Shown here one piece after another: positions 2-10,217 of a stretch of 12,809 nt of DNA; the stretch's first letter is position 1, and every line of letters begins with the position of its first letter. The notes below the pieces were generated by a model. That model was given only the letters and a program-made list of their open reading frames with translations, ran no database searches and was not told where the DNA came from. Position numbers and translations under genes: made by a program. The DNA is from Promethearchaeota archaeon (GTDB lineage Archaea > Asgardarchaeota > Odinarchaeia > Odinarchaeales > JBHLKK01), in contig JBHLPL010000053.1 of NCBI GenBank assembly GCA_048939465.1, positions 1-12,809 on the forward strand, read 5' to 3'.

Positions 2-226
2 TGTGGGGTACTTAATGGGATATTTAACCCGCCTTTTGAGGGTAAATACGGAGCAATACTAGGGATCTGTATGTTATTTGCAACATATCCTATAACAGTC
101 TATGGTCTGAGGATTGATCTAGATGCAGTCGGAGGACGGAGATCGGCTTTCGTATCAGGTCTTCTTCAGTTCTTTTTCTTATGGATAGTAGTTTGGACCC
201 TTACTTTCTCACTCATTCGTATGTAA
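2..226 (+). CDS. EMC6-like small membrane protein (archaeal DUF5379 / Rab5ip-EMC6 type), 5'-truncated at the window edge
   Basis: My translation of frame +2 is open from base 2 to TAA at 224-226: CGVLNGIFNPPFEGKYGAILGICMLFATYPITVYGLRIDLDAVGGRRSAFVSGLLQFFFLWIVVWTLTFSLIRM. It has two hydrophobic segments. The C-terminal G-L-x2-FFxxWxxxWTLxxxL resembles EMC6 (human GGLFTYVLFWTFLYGMV, from memory). Not in the ORF track. Confidence 0.65.
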   Translation, partial: CGVLNGIFNPPFEGKYGAILGICMLFATYPITVYGLRIDLDAVGGRRSAFVSGLLQFFFLWIVVWTLTFSLIRM

Positions 227-2562: not shown

Positions 2563-3084
2563 TTATATAGGACTGGGGGTAATCATGTCTTTACCCTTCA
2601 ATATTCTTGACATGCTCCACAAATCTACTTCCTGAATGTCTGGATCATTTCTGAGCTCTCTAATAAAAGACTCAAGGGCATCTTGGTTTTCAGCTATGAC
2701 TATTGCATACAGCGAGGTTTTGTCCTCGCCAGTCGCCAGGAACCTGATGCGTGGATCTTTCAAGAACTTCCTTGAGATTTCTTCCGTTCTTTTGATACTA
2801 ATGTCTTCGATTATGTGTCCACCAATTTTGAAGCTAATCAAAGCAAACAGCTCATATCCCAGGCTTTCAGGCGGTATATTAATTGTAAACCTCTTTATGA
2901 TTCCACTATCCTTGAGCTTCTTGACTCTGAAATGTATGGTGGTATCAGGAATCTTGTCTTTGGGACCGAGTTCTCCCATTTTGCGCAACTCTTTAGTTAC
3001 GCTGCTGGCAATCTTCGTAAAAGGAGTTCTTGCATCCTCAACTAACATGGCCAAAATCTGGCGATCGAGTTTGTCTAATCGCAT
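2563..3084 (-). CDS. Lrp/AsnC-family transcriptional regulator with an insertion in the HTH
   Basis: MRLDKLDRQILAMLVEDARTPFTKIA...TTIHFRVKKLKDSGIIKRFT wHTH followed by a RAM-like C-terminal domain. Its stop lies 18 nt before the KaiC-like start. Confidence 0.88.
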   Translation of the reverse strand: MRLDKLDRQILAMLVEDARTPFTKIASSVTKELRKMGELGPKDKIPDTTIHFRVKKLKDSGIIKRFTINIPPESLGYELFALISFKIGGHIIEDISIKRTEEISRKFLKDPRIRFLATGEDKTSLYAIVIAENQDALESFIRELRNDPDIQEVDLWSMSRILKGKDMITPSPI

Positions 3085-3144: not shown

Positions 3145-3461
3145 CAAAAAACCGGTTCGTTATTATGAAAAACGCATCTAATGATTTTCCTAGTGCGATA
3201 AATAGGCCTTTTATTGTGCGAATCTGCCAGAAAACAAACAGGAACCACTATAGGTTATATTCTCCAATAAAGTCGGGAGATCTGTTGATTTTCAGCCAAA
3301 AAAGGTCAGAATAGGGTTTTCGCGAGGCATACCTTTTTAACCAAGAAGGTCTATTATGCTTTGAGAGATGGCTAGCGGATATAGGAAATTGGGTGAGCAA
3401 AAGTAGAGGAGAGAGTCGGGCGATCTCGCATCGCAGACAGAAACAGAATACGGTGTCGTAG

Positions 3462-3707
3462 ATGGCAGTTAAGATGGAGGAGCAAGAACAGGTCCATAAG
3501 AAGAGGAACCATATTAGTAGCGGATTACTTTATGAAGAATACCCAGCTTCTAAAGACGAGCTCAGGCCAAGGCCTACATACCGGGACGGTTGCCCCTGTT
3601 TTACATGTAGGAACATTACAGCTTGCGGAGTAGGGCAGGAAGCGTCACCAATCTCATGTTCAGAGATTGGGATTTGGGTTCAAGAACTAGCCAGGAGAAA
3701 AACGTAG
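3462..3707 (+). CDS. Small Cys-rich protein matching the RPC34/RPC39/TFEbeta C-terminal [4Fe-4S] domain, with no winged helix
   Basis: PCFTC-RNITA-C-GVGQEASPIS-C-SEIGIW gives P-C-x2-C-x5-C-x10-C-x5-W with an SP before the last Cys, the same pattern as Pol III RPC39/C34 and crenarchaeal TFEbeta. GGTG SD at 3452-3455 and an oligo-T run after the stop. Confidence 0.75.
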   Translation: MAVKMEEQEQVHKKRNHISSGLLYEEYPASKDELRPRPTYRDGCPCFTCRNITACGVGQEASPISCSEIGIWVQELARRKT

Positions 3708-3727: not shown

Positions 3728-4633
3728 CTAGCGTGTTATCTTAACGCTGAGATAGCCTACTATCGCGTCTTCACTACCCCGTGTATCGTAGCTTGTGGCA
3801 TATTTTAGTTTCCTAACCTCTTTTGCATCCAAAACACGCGATGCCTCCAATGCAATTGCAACTGGTACTGATCCGCACATTGTGGTCTTTTTGGCAAGGT
3901 TTAGCATTTTGTTAGTATCAAGCTCACAGATGGCAGATATGATTTCCCCATCTGTTCTGTAAATCCATTTAATCACCTTCTCAATGGGTCCCGGTCCAGC
4001 AGGAGCAAAACCATAAAACATAGAGCCGTAGTGGGTCATATCAGTGCTTGCGAGAATAACACTGTCCCGTTTATTTTCTTCTATGGCTTTGGCCACAACC
4101 TCGCCTGTCCGACGGCACGTATCTAGATCAGACCTTCCAACAGTAATAGGCACAATGTTGAAATCTTCTCCATAAAGAAATTGAAGGAAAGGAAGTTGGA
4201 CTTCTAGGCTATGCTCGCGCTCATGAGGCCAACTATCTGCCACTATAAGGCGTTTATCTTCCTCTCTTCCCAGCTTCATTATAGACTCAGCAAGTGTCTC
4301 ATCGATCTTGACCTTACCCAAGGGGGTTTGCCAAAATCCTTTTTCCATAATGGCGGTTCCGAGGTACCCACCATGGCTGGGGCCAATAATCACAAAAGTC
4401 TCGGGCCGGCCATCACAAGCCAACTCGTAGAAGAGATGAGCCGCAATAGGACCAGAATAAATGTATCCCGCATGAGGACTGATCCCTCCAATTATATTAC
4501 GCGGTCCATCAGTTCTTGCTTTTGGTAGCTTACCAGGACCTTGAGGGTCCAGGAAGGAGTTTCTAATGAGTTCTTTTGTCTCATCAAGTGATGGCGAGTA
4601 GAAGCCAGTAGCAATTGGGCGTCTTACAACCAA
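3728..4633 (-). CDS. amrB: MEMO1-family protein (AmmeMemoRadiSam protein B)
   Basis: Motifs RRPIATGFY, SPHAGYIYSG, IGPSH, WQTPLG, EHSLEVQLPFLQ, ASTDMTHYG, TMCG and VGY. TTG start with a GGAGG SD. Confidence 0.93.
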   Translation of the reverse strand: MVVRRPIATGFYSPSLDETKELIRNSFLDPQGPGKLPKARTDGPRNIIGGISPHAGYIYSGPIAAHLFYELACDGRPETFVIIGPSHGGYLGTAIMEKGFWQTPLGKVKIDETLAESIMKLGREEDKRLIVADSWPHEREHSLEVQLPFLQFLYGEDFNIVPITVGRSDLDTCRRTGEVVAKAIEENKRDSVILASTDMTHYGSMFYGFAPAGPGPIEKVIKWIYRTDGEIISAICELDTNKMLNLAKKTTMCGSVPVAIALEASRVLDAKEVRKLKYATSYDTRGSEDAIVGYLSVKITR

Positions 4634-5859: not shown

Positions 5860-5923
5860 CTTGACACTGACTAACAGAAGACTCTCCGAGCAAATAGTTG
5901 CAAAAGCACTGATTGTGAGGGAA

Positions 5924-6334
5924 ATGAAAGACAGAAATCAGACTCTGGAAGTTGTTGTGATCACCGGTAGAACCATAGATCAAGGAAGAGCCATTGAAGG
6001 CAAGAAGATCTCAGAGGATTTGCTGAGTATTGCAGCCATTTGCGAACTGTGTCAAGAGGACATGGATAAGCTCAACGTCAAAGAAGGAGAAACGGTAAAA
6101 CTCATGACCGATTATGGTGAGAATATATTCATCGCTAAACCATCCAAGTCCCTCGATAGTGGCATTGTTTTCATACCCATGGGTCTTTGGGCAAATAGGA
6201 TAATCAGCCCGAACACAGGTAACATCGGAATGCCTTCTTTTAAGGGCGTTAGGGGCACTCTGGTGGCTGCACCGGGAGAAAAGCCATCTACTCCCAAGAA
6301 GTTCATAAAGAACCTACTCGAGTCTAAGCAATGA
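5924..6334 (+). CDS. fwdD: Formylmethanofuran dehydrogenase subunit D (molybdopterin dinucleotide-binding)
   Basis: Motifs ITGRTIDQG, CEL..EDM..L.V..G..V, G.VFIPMG.WAN and G.G.PSFKG. Start placed at ATG 5924 (GTGAGG SD) rather than TTG 5861. Its stop overlaps the fwdB ATG (ATGA). Confidence 0.9.
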   Translation: MKDRNQTLEVVVITGRTIDQGRAIEGKKISEDLLSIAAICELCQEDMDKLNVKEGETVKLMTDYGENIFIAKPSKSLDSGIVFIPMGLWANRIISPNTGNIGMPSFKGVRGTLVAAPGEKPSTPKKFIKNLLESKQ

Positions 6335-7638
6335 AGGTGCCGACCATGAAGTCCATTAGTGATGTTGTTTGCTCATTTTGTGGATGTTTGTGTGACGATA
6401 TAGAAGTTGTCATAGACAATAATCGGATAGCAAAGGCCAAGAAAGCGTGTGCGTTAGGAAAGGCTAGATTGCTTACGGCAGAGGACCCAGAAAGATTAAG
6501 AAAACCTCTAGTACGGGAACAGGGAGAATTAGTCGATGCCAGTTTAGATCGAGCAATCAAGAATAGCGCTGGAATACTATCAAACGCAAAATTGCCTTTA
6601 TTATACGGATGGAGTACGACAAGCTGTGAAGCACAAAGAATCGGACTGGAAATAGCAGAAGAGATTGGGGGTATATTTGATAACACGACATCGGTCTGTC
6701 ACGGCCCGACCACATTAGCATACCATGAGGTGGGGATGAGCGCATGCACCCTAGGCGAAGTAAAAAACCGAGCGGATGTGATAATCTACTGGGGGAGCAA
6801 TCCACTAGAGGCTCATCCGCGACACATAAGCAGATACACGTATCTTTCTAAAGGTCTTTTCAGAAAGAGTCCGAAAGAGAGAGAACTCATTGTGGTTGAT
6901 GCCAGAGAAACCAAGAGTGCAAGACTTGCAACACGATTCTTGAAAGTAAAGCCAAACAGCGATTACGAACTTCTCTCTGCCTTAAGAATAGCAGTAAAAA
7001 CTGGAGATTTAGACCGTGAAACAGTGGCAGGTATCACTAAGGAAGAGATAATAGAGATTGCAGAGTTGATGAAGAATGCAGAATATGGTGCCTTGTTCTT
7101 TGGCTTAGGACTGACTATGAGCAGAGGAAAGCACAGGAATATAGACGCAGCGATATGTCTCACAAGTGATTTGAACGCGTACACAAAATGGGTAATAATG
7201 CCGATGAGAGGACACTATAATGTTACAGGAGCGAACGCGGTCTCGGCGTGGATTGCGGGTTTTCCTTTTGGAGTCGACTTTAGCAGAGGCTATCCTCGAT
7301 ATAACCCGGGAGAGACAACTGCCGTTGAACTCCTGTTGCGAGAAGAGGTTGATGCAGCATTAATAGTGGCATCAGATCCGGTATCAAACTTCCCAATAAA
7401 AGCAGCGGAACATCTTGCCAGAATACCGATGATTGCAATTGATCCCCACAGGACTCCTACGACTGAGATAGCGGATGTTGTAATCCCATCTGCTATTGTC
7501 GGAATTGAAGTCGAGGGAACTGCATATAGAATGGATCATGTACCCCTCAGATTGAAGAAGATGGTTGAACCTCCAGCAGGTTGTCTCGCTGATGAGGAGA
7601 TTCTGGAAAGATTGTTAAAGGCAATCAAAAAGCCCTGA
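6331..7638 (+). CDS. fwdB: Formylmethanofuran dehydrogenase subunit B (Mo/W-bis-MGD, [4Fe-4S])
   Basis: CSFCGCLCDD...C cluster motif, SVCHGPT with a Cys ligand (not Sec), WGSNPLEAHPRH, MRGHYNVTG and GTAYRMD. An alternative start is ATG 6346. Confidence 0.95.
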   Translation: MKVPTMKSISDVVCSFCGCLCDDIEVVIDNNRIAKAKKACALGKARLLTAEDPERLRKPLVREQGELVDASLDRAIKNSAGILSNAKLPLLYGWSTTSCEAQRIGLEIAEEIGGIFDNTTSVCHGPTTLAYHEVGMSACTLGEVKNRADVIIYWGSNPLEAHPRHISRYTYLSKGLFRKSPKERELIVVDARETKSARLATRFLKVKPNSDYELLSALRIAVKTGDLDRETVAGITKEEIIEIAELMKNAEYGALFFGLGLTMSRGKHRNIDAAICLTSDLNAYTKWVIMPMRGHYNVTGANAVSAWIAGFPFGVDFSRGYPRYNPGETTAVELLLREEVDAALIVASDPVSNFPIKAAEHLARIPMIAIDPHRTPTTEIADVVIPSAIVGIEVEGTAYRMDHVPLRLKKMVEPPAGCLADEEILERLLKAIKKP

Positions 7639-7641
7639 TTA

Positions 7642-9384
7642 ATGAAAGCAGGACGGATGAGAAAAGTGTCTACCCCCATTAGGAATTCACTAATTATAAA
7701 CAACGGAATTGTCTACGACCCGCTTAATGATATCATGGGAGAGAAGATGGATCTATACATCAAAAATGGCAAGATAGTGGAAGAGTTCAGAAAAAATGGT
7801 GCTAGAACAATAGACGCTCAAGGAATGCTTGTTATGCCTGGTGGTGTTGACATACACACACATATAGCAGGCTCCAAAGTAAACACAGGTCGCATGCTCA
7901 GACCGGAAGAACATCGAACATCGTTCGTACCCAAAGGTGTGATGCCCAGATCTGGCGGAGGATATTCGACTCCTACAACATACATATGTGGATATAGATA
8001 TGCCATCATGGGTTATACAACGGCATTCGAACCTGCTACACCGCCTCTAAAAACAAGACATACTCATGAAGAACTGAATGATATTCCGATTATTGATAAG
8101 GCCTGTTTTCCGTTGCTCGGAAATAATTGGATAATCATGAATTATCTCAGAGATGGTGAAACTGAGAGACTTAAGGGATACATAGCCTGGATCATGCGGG
8201 CTGTCAAAGGGTATGCGATCAAAGTTGTGGCACCAGGTTCTACTGAGGCTTGGAGCTGGGCTAAGGGGATATCAAGCCTCGACGAAGAAGTTCCTCACTT
8301 TGGTATCTCTCCAAGAGAAATAATCCGAGGACTTGTGGAGATAAATGAGGATCTGAAACTCCCGCATACAGTTCACCTACATACACTCAACTTGGGACGA
8401 CCCGGAAATTATGAAACGGCCATCGAAACAATGAGGATTCTAGAGGGTGTCAATCCCGCACGAGGACGTAAACGAGTGCTTCACGTTACTCACATTCAGT
8501 TTAATTCATACTCAGGTACATCCTGGAAGGATTTTGGTTCAGGTGCAGCAGAGATAGCCAACTACCTGAATTCGCACGACCACATAAGTGTTGACATGGG
8601 ACAGGTTGTTTTCGGGAATACAACCACCATGACTGCGGATGGTGAATGGCAATATCGACTTCGAAAACTGACCGGACTCAAATGGGTGAATGGAGATGTT
8701 GAACTAGAGACAGGAATGGGTGTGGTTCCTTATATTTTTTCACGTAAAAATCTCGTTAATGCTGTTCAATGGTCAATAGGATTAGAACTGGCCCTCCTGA
8801 CAGAAGATCCTTGGCAGATTTATCTTACCACTGATCATCCGAATGGGGGACCTTTTACAGCCTATCCTACGATCATCTCATGGCTTATGAGCAAGAAAGC
8901 CAGAGGAGAAATGCTGGAAAAAGTCCATAAAGCAGCGTCGGATAGGTCAACCTTGTCTGATGTTACCAGAGAATTTGATTTTGGAGAAATAGCAATAATA
9001 TCACGCGCGGCCACAGCCAAGGCCCTTGGCTTAAAGAACAAGGGACACCTAGGTTCTGGCGCCGATGCTGACATAGCCATATATCCGATCTATCCCAAGA
9101 AGGATGATGCGACCACCGAACCTAAAAAAGTGATTAAGGCTTTTTCCAAAACAGCCTACACGATTAAAGATGGGGCTGTGGTTGCTAAGAGAGGCAAAAT
9201 AGTCGAACAACCTTTTGGCAGAACCTTCTGGATAGATATAGAAATGCCAGAGAACATAATGAAAGAAACATATGATGACGTAAAGGAAACCTTTGAAAAA
9301 AACTATACAATCAATCTGTCAAACTACCTAATAGGAGATGAGGAACTCCTTAAATCATCTCCGATAAAGGTTAGCTCTCGATAG
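7642..9384 (+). CDS. fwdA: Formylmethanofuran dehydrogenase subunit A (amidohydrolase fold)
   Basis: Motifs MPGGVDIHTHIAG, GYTTAFEPA, HTVHLH, HVTHIQF and LTTDHPNGGPF. An alternative start is ATG 7657. Confidence 0.96.
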   Translation: MKAGRMRKVSTPIRNSLIINNGIVYDPLNDIMGEKMDLYIKNGKIVEEFRKNGARTIDAQGMLVMPGGVDIHTHIAGSKVNTGRMLRPEEHRTSFVPKGVMPRSGGGYSTPTTYICGYRYAIMGYTTAFEPATPPLKTRHTHEELNDIPIIDKACFPLLGNNWIIMNYLRDGETERLKGYIAWIMRAVKGYAIKVVAPGSTEAWSWAKGISSLDEEVPHFGISPREIIRGLVEINEDLKLPHTVHLHTLNLGRPGNYETAIETMRILEGVNPARGRKRVLHVTHIQFNSYSGTSWKDFGSGAAEIANYLNSHDHISVDMGQVVFGNTTTMTADGEWQYRLRKLTGLKWVNGDVELETGMGVVPYIFSRKNLVNAVQWSIGLELALLTEDPWQIYLTTDHPNGGPFTAYPTIISWLMSKKARGEMLEKVHKAASDRSTLSDVTREFDFGEIAIISRAATAKALGLKNKGHLGSGADADIAIYPIYPKKDDATTEPKKVIKAFSKTAYTIKDGAVVAKRGKIVEQPFGRTFWIDIEMPENIMKETYDDVKETFEKNYTINLSNYLIGDEELLKSSPIKVSSR

Positions 9385-9407
9385 AAATGAATCTGTGGGG
9401 AAGTAGG

Positions 9408-10217
9408 ATGAAGGAAATCGTGCTTACACTCAAGAAAGAATCAAAAGTTCCCCTTGAAGCTGAATTGATATCTCCAGACTCATTCTCAGGAAAGGAATTG
9501 AACGAGATTGCTAATCTTACGGCATGGCACGGAAACAAAAAGATTAAGCTGGGAGATTTCTTCAAGGCAGAGGGAGAACCGTCTGACAAACCGGAGGACT
9601 TGCACATAATAGTTAAAGGAGATGCTTCAAAAGTCAAATGGATCGGTAAACGAATGACCTCTGGTAAAATCACGATAGCAGGAAATGCGGGGATGCATGT
9701 TGGAGCTGAGATGTACGGGGGAGAAATTACGGTTGAGGGGGATGCTGAGAGTTGGGCCGGCACGGAGCTCCACGGAGGTCTGCTTCATATCAAAGGAAAT
9801 GCGGGGGATTACGTAGGCGCCGTGTACAGAGGAGAATGGAGAGGAATGAAAGAAGGGTTAATAGTGGTCGAGGGAAATGTTGGCAATGAACTAGCACTAT
9901 GGATGATGGGCGGAAGAATAATCGTGAAGGGGGGCGCAGGCCTATTTGCTGCCGCACATCTGAGGGGGGGAACTGTATTGATTCATGGTAATATAGGGAG
10001 GTTCTTAGGGGCAGAGATGAAAAAGGGCACAGTGGTTGCGCTTGGTAATCTAGAAAGCTTATTACCCGGATTCAAGTTTAATGAAGAAACACCCCTCTTA
10101 AAATTAGATGACGAAGAAGAACTGAAGGGTCCATTTCTCAGATTCATGGGGGACCTTGCAGAAAATGGAAAGGGAGAACTGTACCTTCTAAAGGAGAAAA
10201 ACAAGCATATAATCTGA
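9408..10217 (+). CDS. fwdC: Formylmethanofuran dehydrogenase subunit C (beta-helix)
   Basis: Repeated G.I.(I/V).G.AG...G..M.GG units, PLEAELISPD and YRGEWRGM. ATG 9408 is preferred over 9387 because MKEIVL resembles the usual N-terminus. Confidence 0.94.
   Translation: MKEIVLTLKKESKVPLEAELISPDSFSGKELNEIANLTAWHGNKKIKLGDFFKAEGEPSDKPEDLHIIVKGDASKVKWIGKRMTSGKITIAGNAGMHVGAEMYGGEITVEGDAESWAGTELHGGLLHIKGNAGDYVGAVYRGEWRGMKEGLIVVEGNVGNELALWMMGGRIIVKGGAGLFAAAHLRGGTVLIHGNIGRFLGAEMKKGTVVALGNLESLLPGFKFNEETPLLKLDDEEELKGPFLRFMGDLAENGKGELYLLKEKNKHII

Follow-up and report, generated by a model that had tools for sequence, protein, structure and literature searches.

The transcription factor TFE-beta is described as a winged helix joined to an Fe-S domain, and its known variants have lost either the whole gene or the cluster (PMC5861453 and reviews). 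In vitro the winged helix can be spared for forming the dimer, for melting DNA and for stimulating transcription, and only strengthens the pre-initiation complex (PIC). The contig analysed here, a stretch of 12,809 nucleotides referred to as the window, comes from an Odin-type Asgard archaeon whose genus belongs to the same order as Odinarchaeum, the latter representing the closest other family of that order. It carries an open reading frame for 81 residues that a first-pass annotation had described as a stand-alone RNA polymerase III C34/TFEbeta-type Fe-S domain with no winged helix, which raises the question of whether a lineage can possess a TFE-beta from which the winged helix has been naturally removed. 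A literature search covering few subscription papers returned no report of such a protein. Judged by its sequence, the gene is a truncated TFE-beta orthologue and not a canonical two-domain member of the family.

Identity and integrity of the short tfeB gene

The reading frame was confirmed on the sequence (Table 1). Its product possesses Cys44, Cys46, Cys49, Cys55 and Cys66 together with Pro45, Ser62-Pro63 and Trp72, so that the pattern first described for it, with cysteines spaced 3/6/11, a proline before the first, Ser-Pro before the last, and Trp72, is present as claimed. The spacing is that of the cluster cysteines C92/95/101/112 in TFE-beta from Saccharolobus solfataricus (Sso; PMC4495717), and of C287/290/296/307 in human RPC6. 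Across six frames of the 1.96 Mb genome the motif PC-x2-C-x5-C-x8-12-C occurs once, at tfeB. Searched alone, the product has no meaningful match in Pfam, NCBIfam or the PDB (ATX_III, E 0.023; VTA1, E 0.3), and the Pfam family RNA_pol_Rpc34 (PF05158) is not matched by the 81-residue protein itself; 7 of 18 aligned relatives match it weakly. A profile built from the product and its relatives has human RPC6 as its best PDB match (E 5.5e-9, covering its Fe-S domain as well as its second winged helix), which bears out the assignment of the four-cysteine domain to the C34/TFEbeta type. The protein is also colinear and gap-free with positions 43-128 of the full-length profile (E 1.7e-15), and Cys44, at first taken for an extra cysteine, belongs to a family-wide CPC found in 131 of 133 homologues. 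Human RPC39/RPC6 (PF05158; PDB 7a6h_P) shares the C-terminal four-cysteine spacing, which carries [4Fe-4S] in the human protein, as well as the Ser-Pro before the last cysteine and the tryptophan helix, but it is a eukaryotic protein of 316 residues with tandem winged helices and a stable Pol III subunit alongside RPC62/RPC32. With 81 residues, no tandem winged helices and an archaeal genome around it, the short protein is not classed as RPC34/RPC39.

Table 1. The tfeB locus and its parts, in coordinates of the window
Feature	Position	Strand	Evidence
Truncated tfeB (TFE-beta orthologue), 81 residues; sole copy found in the genome	3462..3707	+	Frame uninterrupted across 7 genus-level sequences, with dN/dS 0.24 when pooled
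Residues 1-27, what is left of the winged helix, an eroded C-terminal half (last part of helix 3, then the wing)	3462..3542	+	Register tests; dN/dS 0.13
Residues 28-42, linker relaxed in sequence, of the same length as in Odinarchaeum	3543..3587	+	dN/dS 0.83
Residues 43-80, four-cysteine domain (C46, C49, C55, C66; CPC with C44; Pro63; Trp72 helix)	3588..3701	+	Fe-S profile, E 4.7e-14
In-frame TAG before the start codon, species-specific; CAG/GAG in genus mates	3459..3461	+	Comparison of loci
GGTGTC, Shine-Dalgarno-like, 5-10 nt 5' of the ATG	3452..3457	+	Invariant in 9 loci
TATA-like block (CTTTTTA at 3333-3339), probable promoter	3328..3345	+	Between-clade identity 0.90 vs 0.52-0.60 in spacers
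MEMO1-family gene, convergent with tfeB	3728..4633	-	Synteny marker common to full-length tfeB of Odinarchaeum

Among 61 relatives 50 were matched, and nearly all of their frames are at least 113 residues long with both the winged helix and the Fe-S domain. Each of the three genus members, like Odinarchaeum, has a single TFE-beta match per genome, and tfeB and MEMO1 converge in this window as they do in the four genomes of the Odinarchaeum family that carry the full-length gene. The single copy, the mutual best match within the family and the conserved synteny together identify the 81-residue gene as the orthologue and not a spare copy, in assemblies that are 78-91% complete (91% for the source genome, 78% and 82% for its genus mates) and in which a second copy might be missed. 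The search for a second, full-length TFEbeta that the first-pass annotation had proposed found none by profile or motif in the 91%-complete source genome. The closest point of comparison is OdinLCB4_002215 of Candidatus Odinarchaeum yellowstonii (127 residues), an orthologue with the same MEMO1 neighbour and 28-30% identity, which differs in that its N-terminus is longer by about 39 residues and its basic wing (Gly-Arg-Trp-Thr-Tyr-Arg-Leu) is intact.

The ATG of Table 1 is the only start codon common to all nine loci compared, and the GGTGTC element lends it further support as the probable start of tfeB (GGTG lies 5' of 140 of the 898 long reading frames in the genome). The TATA-like block would give tfeB a leader of roughly 95 nt. 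An upstream ATG at 3368 was considered as a coding start and rejected. The in-frame TAG directly before the start is real, as first noted, and is kept in other assemblies; since it is specific to this lineage and genus mates that lack it are likewise short, it did not cause the truncation. Read-through was likewise rejected, as it would need TGA and TAG/TAA to be passed jointly, in addition to lineage-specific indels.

It is scarcely credible that the winged helix is missing or broken because of a mistake in sequencing or assembly. The source genome is a fragmented metagenome assembly of 152 contigs, and short forms seen in two single genomes (G329 and G009, below) do resemble a frameshift or contamination, but the identical truncation is common to three genomes and at least six further contigs from JGI, ENA and Logan. 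Contigs from run X5 (another sample) and run X2 (possibly the source) agree across the tfeB start, crossing the TAG without indel or change, and a divergent strain in run X7 keeps the TAG 26 nt from its contig end; the assembly error against which the first-pass annotation had cautioned is thus countered by independent assemblies. No RNA run was listed as containing the locus, and raw-read run X16 gave no reads over it. That annotation had also allowed for a split TFEbeta, and a split gene or programmed frameshift, in which the upstream frame or another gene would supply what the winged helix lacks, is extremely unlikely. Blockwise conservation of the leader and an open, basic upstream frame in genus mate G001 that slightly resembles helix 1 might be read in its favour, but this frame is disrupted by differing stops or indels in most of the nine loci and its phase relative to the main reading frame varies among three, and no upstream frame scores above chance level against the N-terminal half of the winged-helix profile (p 0.16-0.49). 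The earlier impression that the upstream sequence does not read like a winged helix therefore stands, and the helix-1-like frame was rejected as coding. A winged-helix profile that finds Odinarchaeum tfeB with E 2.6e-35 finds nothing comparable in the source genome (G000) or in G001, G002 and G011. As neither a separate winged-helix gene nor a conserved upstream frame was found, we reject the split gene.

Two E2F/DP-family winged-helix genes above the Pfam cut-off are present in the source genome (G000 C96:1-468 and C33:7782-7976, both on the minus strand); there are two per genome in this genus and one in Odinarchaeum, and the family is present in 15 of 30 Asgard genomes. Replacement of the lost domain by such a gene was rejected because the gene coexists with full-length tfeB in Odinarchaeum and was not found in the other short-form genomes searched.

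Several further elements surround the gene. A near-invariant imperfect palindrome, TCTCC...GGGAGA (3259-3282; between-clade identity 0.92; pattern found once in the genome), sits between a divergent Lrp/AsnC gene (2563-3084, minus strand) and tfeB; it is possibly the operator of an Lrp-type regulator, which could put tfeB under its control. A purine-rich leader block (3384-3412; identity 0.86 against 0.52-0.60 in spacers) contains a Shine-Dalgarno-like GGGTGA with no shared start codon downstream. At 3453-3468 there is weak evidence for a hairpin of 5-6 bp, with a GAGA loop in most genus mates and UAGA here, that would mask the start codon together with some of the Shine-Dalgarno-like site; structure in the leader RNA is unsupported (z 0.17, two-sided change in 1 of 22 pairs). 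Elsewhere in the window, a cut reading frame (2-226, plus strand) weakly resembles EMC6/EMC6_arch (E 0.002, under the cut-off), the genes at 5861-10217 are what we take, reading from the sequence, to be a formylmethanofuran dehydrogenase-like cluster with subunits D, B, A and C, and a glycosyltransferase family 4 gene (PF00953; 10275-11255) is presumably of the eukaryote-like DPAGT1/Alg7 type.

The remains of the winged helix

Met1 of the short protein aligns to Ile40 of the Odinarchaeum protein, a position in helix 3, and in both proteins this residue lies 43 residues before the CPC motif. When residues 1-27 are compared with 115 other full-length homologues, they fit best where helix 3 ends and the wing follows (p 0.001-0.004 with any register allowed), and a shuffle test anchored on the cysteines gives p of about 3e-4. 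Unanchored hhalign leaves residues 1-27 undetected, from which it follows that the remnant is strongly eroded, and the case for its presence is built on the register tests and the full-length profile alignment. The remnant possesses neither the conserved glycine after helix 3 nor the Gly-Arg-Trp of the wing, and its net charge is -1 compared with +6/+7 in full-length forms; in Sso TFE-beta basic wing residues have been implicated in DNA contact (PMC4495717). What is left is a half-domain unable to fold as a normal winged helix. The original description of a protein with no winged helix is therefore right as regards an intact domain and wrong as regards residues 1-27, which match the last part of helix 3 and the wing of full-length TFE-beta in a gap-free alignment.

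The three parts of the protein have evolved under different constraints. Pooled pairwise counts over 7 related sequences, whose intervals are optimistic, give a dN/dS of 0.13 (95% 0.04-0.32) for residues 1-27, 0.83 (95% 0.44-1.77) for the linker at residues 28-42 and 0.19 (95% 0.10-0.34) for the Fe-S domain at residues 43-80. The remnant is under purifying selection and is about as constrained as the Fe-S domain. The AlphaFold model of the single chain is poor, with a pLDDT of 48 overall and below 50 in the N-terminal tail (the Odinarchaeum orthologue, modelled without an alignment, reaches 42), and the remnant may be disordered in the free protein. In the first-pass annotation this segment was a charged and probably disordered N-tail, of which the possible disorder of the free chain can be retained, while the rest gives way to a selected remnant with a net charge of -1. 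What is new at this locus is the intermediate stage, in which the remnant is under selection and a closely related full-length form is at hand to compare it with.

Predicted partnership with TFE-alpha and probable function

An intact TFE-alpha of 180 residues is encoded in the source genome (G000 C41:15090-15632), and the gene is intact in G001 as well. Co-folding of the short protein with its own TFE-alpha and a 4Fe-4S cluster scored 0.70 against 0.21 for the best control; 58 of 80 solved complexes attain that mark, as do 2 of 110 mismatched pairs. At least 62% of contacts are common to the runs, and the pLDDT of the partner is at least 57. The model thus favours the binding to TFEalpha that was first proposed, although the pass may reflect likeness to the solved human Pol III RPC62-RPC39 pair; a PDB profile search returned no archaeal TFE-beta among its matches. 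The modelled interface on TFE-beta comprises residues 44-80, the Fe-S domain only, and the contacts on TFE-alpha (107-121 and 164-176) fit the measured need for its winged helix and tail. The co-fold model also has the N-terminal helix of TFE-alpha touching the Fe-S domain. Compared with Odinarchaeum, this genus has a TFE-alpha that is longer by about 10 residues near the N-terminus; in both the zinc ribbon has three cysteines.

Experiments on other archaea offer a guide to what such a protein could do. In Sulfolobus the gene cannot be dispensed with (tfeB, Saci_1342 in Sulfolobus acidocaldarius, is essential). Sso0944, the TFE-beta of S. solfataricus (Blombach et al. 2015, PMC4495717), shares the 3/6/11 four-cysteine domain, the preceding linker, the single copy and the presence of TFE-alpha, and a dimer through the Fe-S domain is predicted here. 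Its delta-1-73 construct (delta-WH) can still form the dimer, bind the clamp, melt DNA and stimulate transcription, although it stimulates the PIC less strongly, whereas delta-1-84 is unstable and loss of the cluster breaks the dimer (PMC4495717). In contrast to that construct, which has no remnant, the loss here is natural, a neutralised 27-residue piece of helix 3 and wing is kept, and the protein is known from sequence and models. The TFE-beta of Haloferax volcanii is also naturally reduced and still dimerises, its winged helix being dispensable for the dimer, but it has been reduced in the opposite direction, with the winged helix kept and the cluster cysteines lost (Blombach et al. 2018, PMC5861453).

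We consider it probable that the short gene is the working TFE-beta of the lineage in shortened form, a natural delta-WH TFE-beta. The ancestor of the genus would have lost helices 1-2 and part of helix 3, with translation now starting inside helix 3. By analogy with Sso TFE-beta and human RPC39 the four-cysteine domain most likely binds a cubane [4Fe-4S] cluster, and in the model it packs on the helix that follows the TFE-alpha winged helix and on the C-terminal tail. Once formed, the dimer would be expected to attach to the clamp of RNA polymerase and assist promoter opening, as delta-1-73 does, presumably lacking, to judge from the lost charge, the additional stabilisation of the PIC that the canonical basic wing gives. 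The branch of the short form is very long, at 2.26 changes per site, and its function may have shifted. The redox- or iron-sensitive behaviour that the first-pass annotation suggested would not be peculiar to the short form, since lability of the cluster is already known for canonical TFE-beta.

Other readings keep the identity of the gene and alter its function or its fate. The most substantial of these, though rather doubtful, is that the dimer is kept while residues 1-27 have taken on a new role in contacting another protein, be it RNA polymerase, TFB, an Fe-S delivery factor or a regulator, making TFE-beta an adaptor or switch and more than a reduced basal factor. This would suit a remnant that is constrained like the Fe-S domain while the linker drifts, and that changed greatly on the stem branch as its basic surface became neutral; the Hodarchaeales forms described below, entirely without a remnant, indicate moreover that it is dispensable for a minimal module. 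Against this, the interval is wide for an estimate made on 26 codons of 7 related sequences, and the constraint could mean stability or solubility only, given the instability of Sso delta-1-84 (PMC4495717). In its broadest and similarly speculative form, Asgard archaea would repeatedly have stripped the winged helix, and here the remnant would have been recruited under new selection, TFE-beta becoming an Fe-S-gated adaptor that controls TFE-alpha and not a DNA-binding subunit. It is unlikely that the same partner is bound by a domain that carries zinc instead of a cluster: the domain was originally read as a zinc finger (PMC2770514), four cysteines alone do not fix the metal, and haloarchaeal TFE-beta functions without a cluster (PMC5861453), but [4Fe-4S] has been found in both tested homologues of this spacing, Sso TFE-beta and human RPC39 (PMC4495717), and the present protein keeps that spacing. 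Very unlikely is a gene decaying towards loss, as in several euryarchaeal lineages that have lost tfeB and in which TFE-alpha works alone. In favour of decay, some archaea can do without tfeB (PMC5861453), the branch here is long, and dN/dS, at 0.26, is roughly double the 0.12 of MEMO1 next to it. However, the ratio is well below 1, the frame, all four cysteines, Pro63 and Trp72 are kept at dS up to about 1, and the promoter-like and Shine-Dalgarno-like elements are conserved.

Short forms in other Asgard archaea

A search of 400 Asgard genomes gave matches of which the best 150 nearly all extend over the winged helix; short forms recur elsewhere. One Jordarchaeales species has a TFE-beta of 68-75 residues that starts at the wing, with the deletions visible against full-length congeners. 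A family of Hodarchaeales has a single, Fe-S-only gene of 53-56 residues in 18 of 22 genomes, sharing with the present gene its status as the sole match per genome, the intact four-cysteine domain and the lack of an intact winged helix, but differing in that the remnant is absent, the loss is family-wide and the motif is xPC and not CPC; it is probably a separate loss. Short genes of 56 and 71 residues sit between SRP19 and FtsJ-Trm1, FtsJ being the usual neighbour of full-length Asgard tfeB. The library representatives gave 48 short hits, many of which may be fragments. Pattern scans matched nothing in metagenome contigs, and in genome contigs three full-length relatives only.

Single genomes G028, G125 and G308 offer candidates for TFE-beta without a recognisable winged helix. 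In the last of these, L097 lacks most of the winged helix present in L092 (G307) through an internal deletion that keeps the frame and is either real or an assembly artefact. Short matches in G384 and G387 were rejected as contig ends, that in G329 as apparently frameshifted, and that in G009 as probable contamination, its four-cysteine domain being identical to that of a protein labelled Bathyarchaeota.

In the tree the Jordarchaeales short form nests inside its full-length congeners, while this genus stands on a long stem near the Odin-type full-length proteins with weak support (82/54). None of 200 bootstrap trees joins the Odin-type and Jordarchaeales short forms, and a single clade for the two is not rejected by the AU test (p 0.13); the independence of the two losses rests on the tree together with the full-length congeners. 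As the winged helix is present in the sister family, in most Asgard lineages searched and in eukaryotic RPC39, its loss is derived and probably repeated. The short form does not reveal an ancestral state and tells little of how TFIIE and Pol III arose; the suggestion that it would bear on TFIIE/Pol III subcomplex evolution is not supported.

Natural truncations that are under selection indicate that whole lineages manage without the winged helix, and suggest that the core of the factor is the Fe-S/TFE-alpha module. This is the mirror image of haloarchaea and of eukaryotic TFIIE-beta, where the cluster was lost and the winged helix kept. The near-isogenic pairs (this genus with Odinarchaeum, and the Jordarchaeales species with its congeners) make the role of the winged helix testable.

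Two further arrangements were seen among the homologues. In a genome labelled Heimdallarchaeota (G061 C138:7400-9000; L042 and L121) a divergent gene with winged helix and Fe-S domain is followed by a stand-alone four-cysteine gene of 81 residues; since this genome carries both forms, a decoy role for the stand-alone gene is possible. Families f9 and f30 (L081-L110) contain TFE-beta homologues of 200-280 residues with long lysine-rich N-terminal extensions before a divergent winged helix, and some of these have an additional zinc-finger-like motif, C-x2-C...H-x-C.
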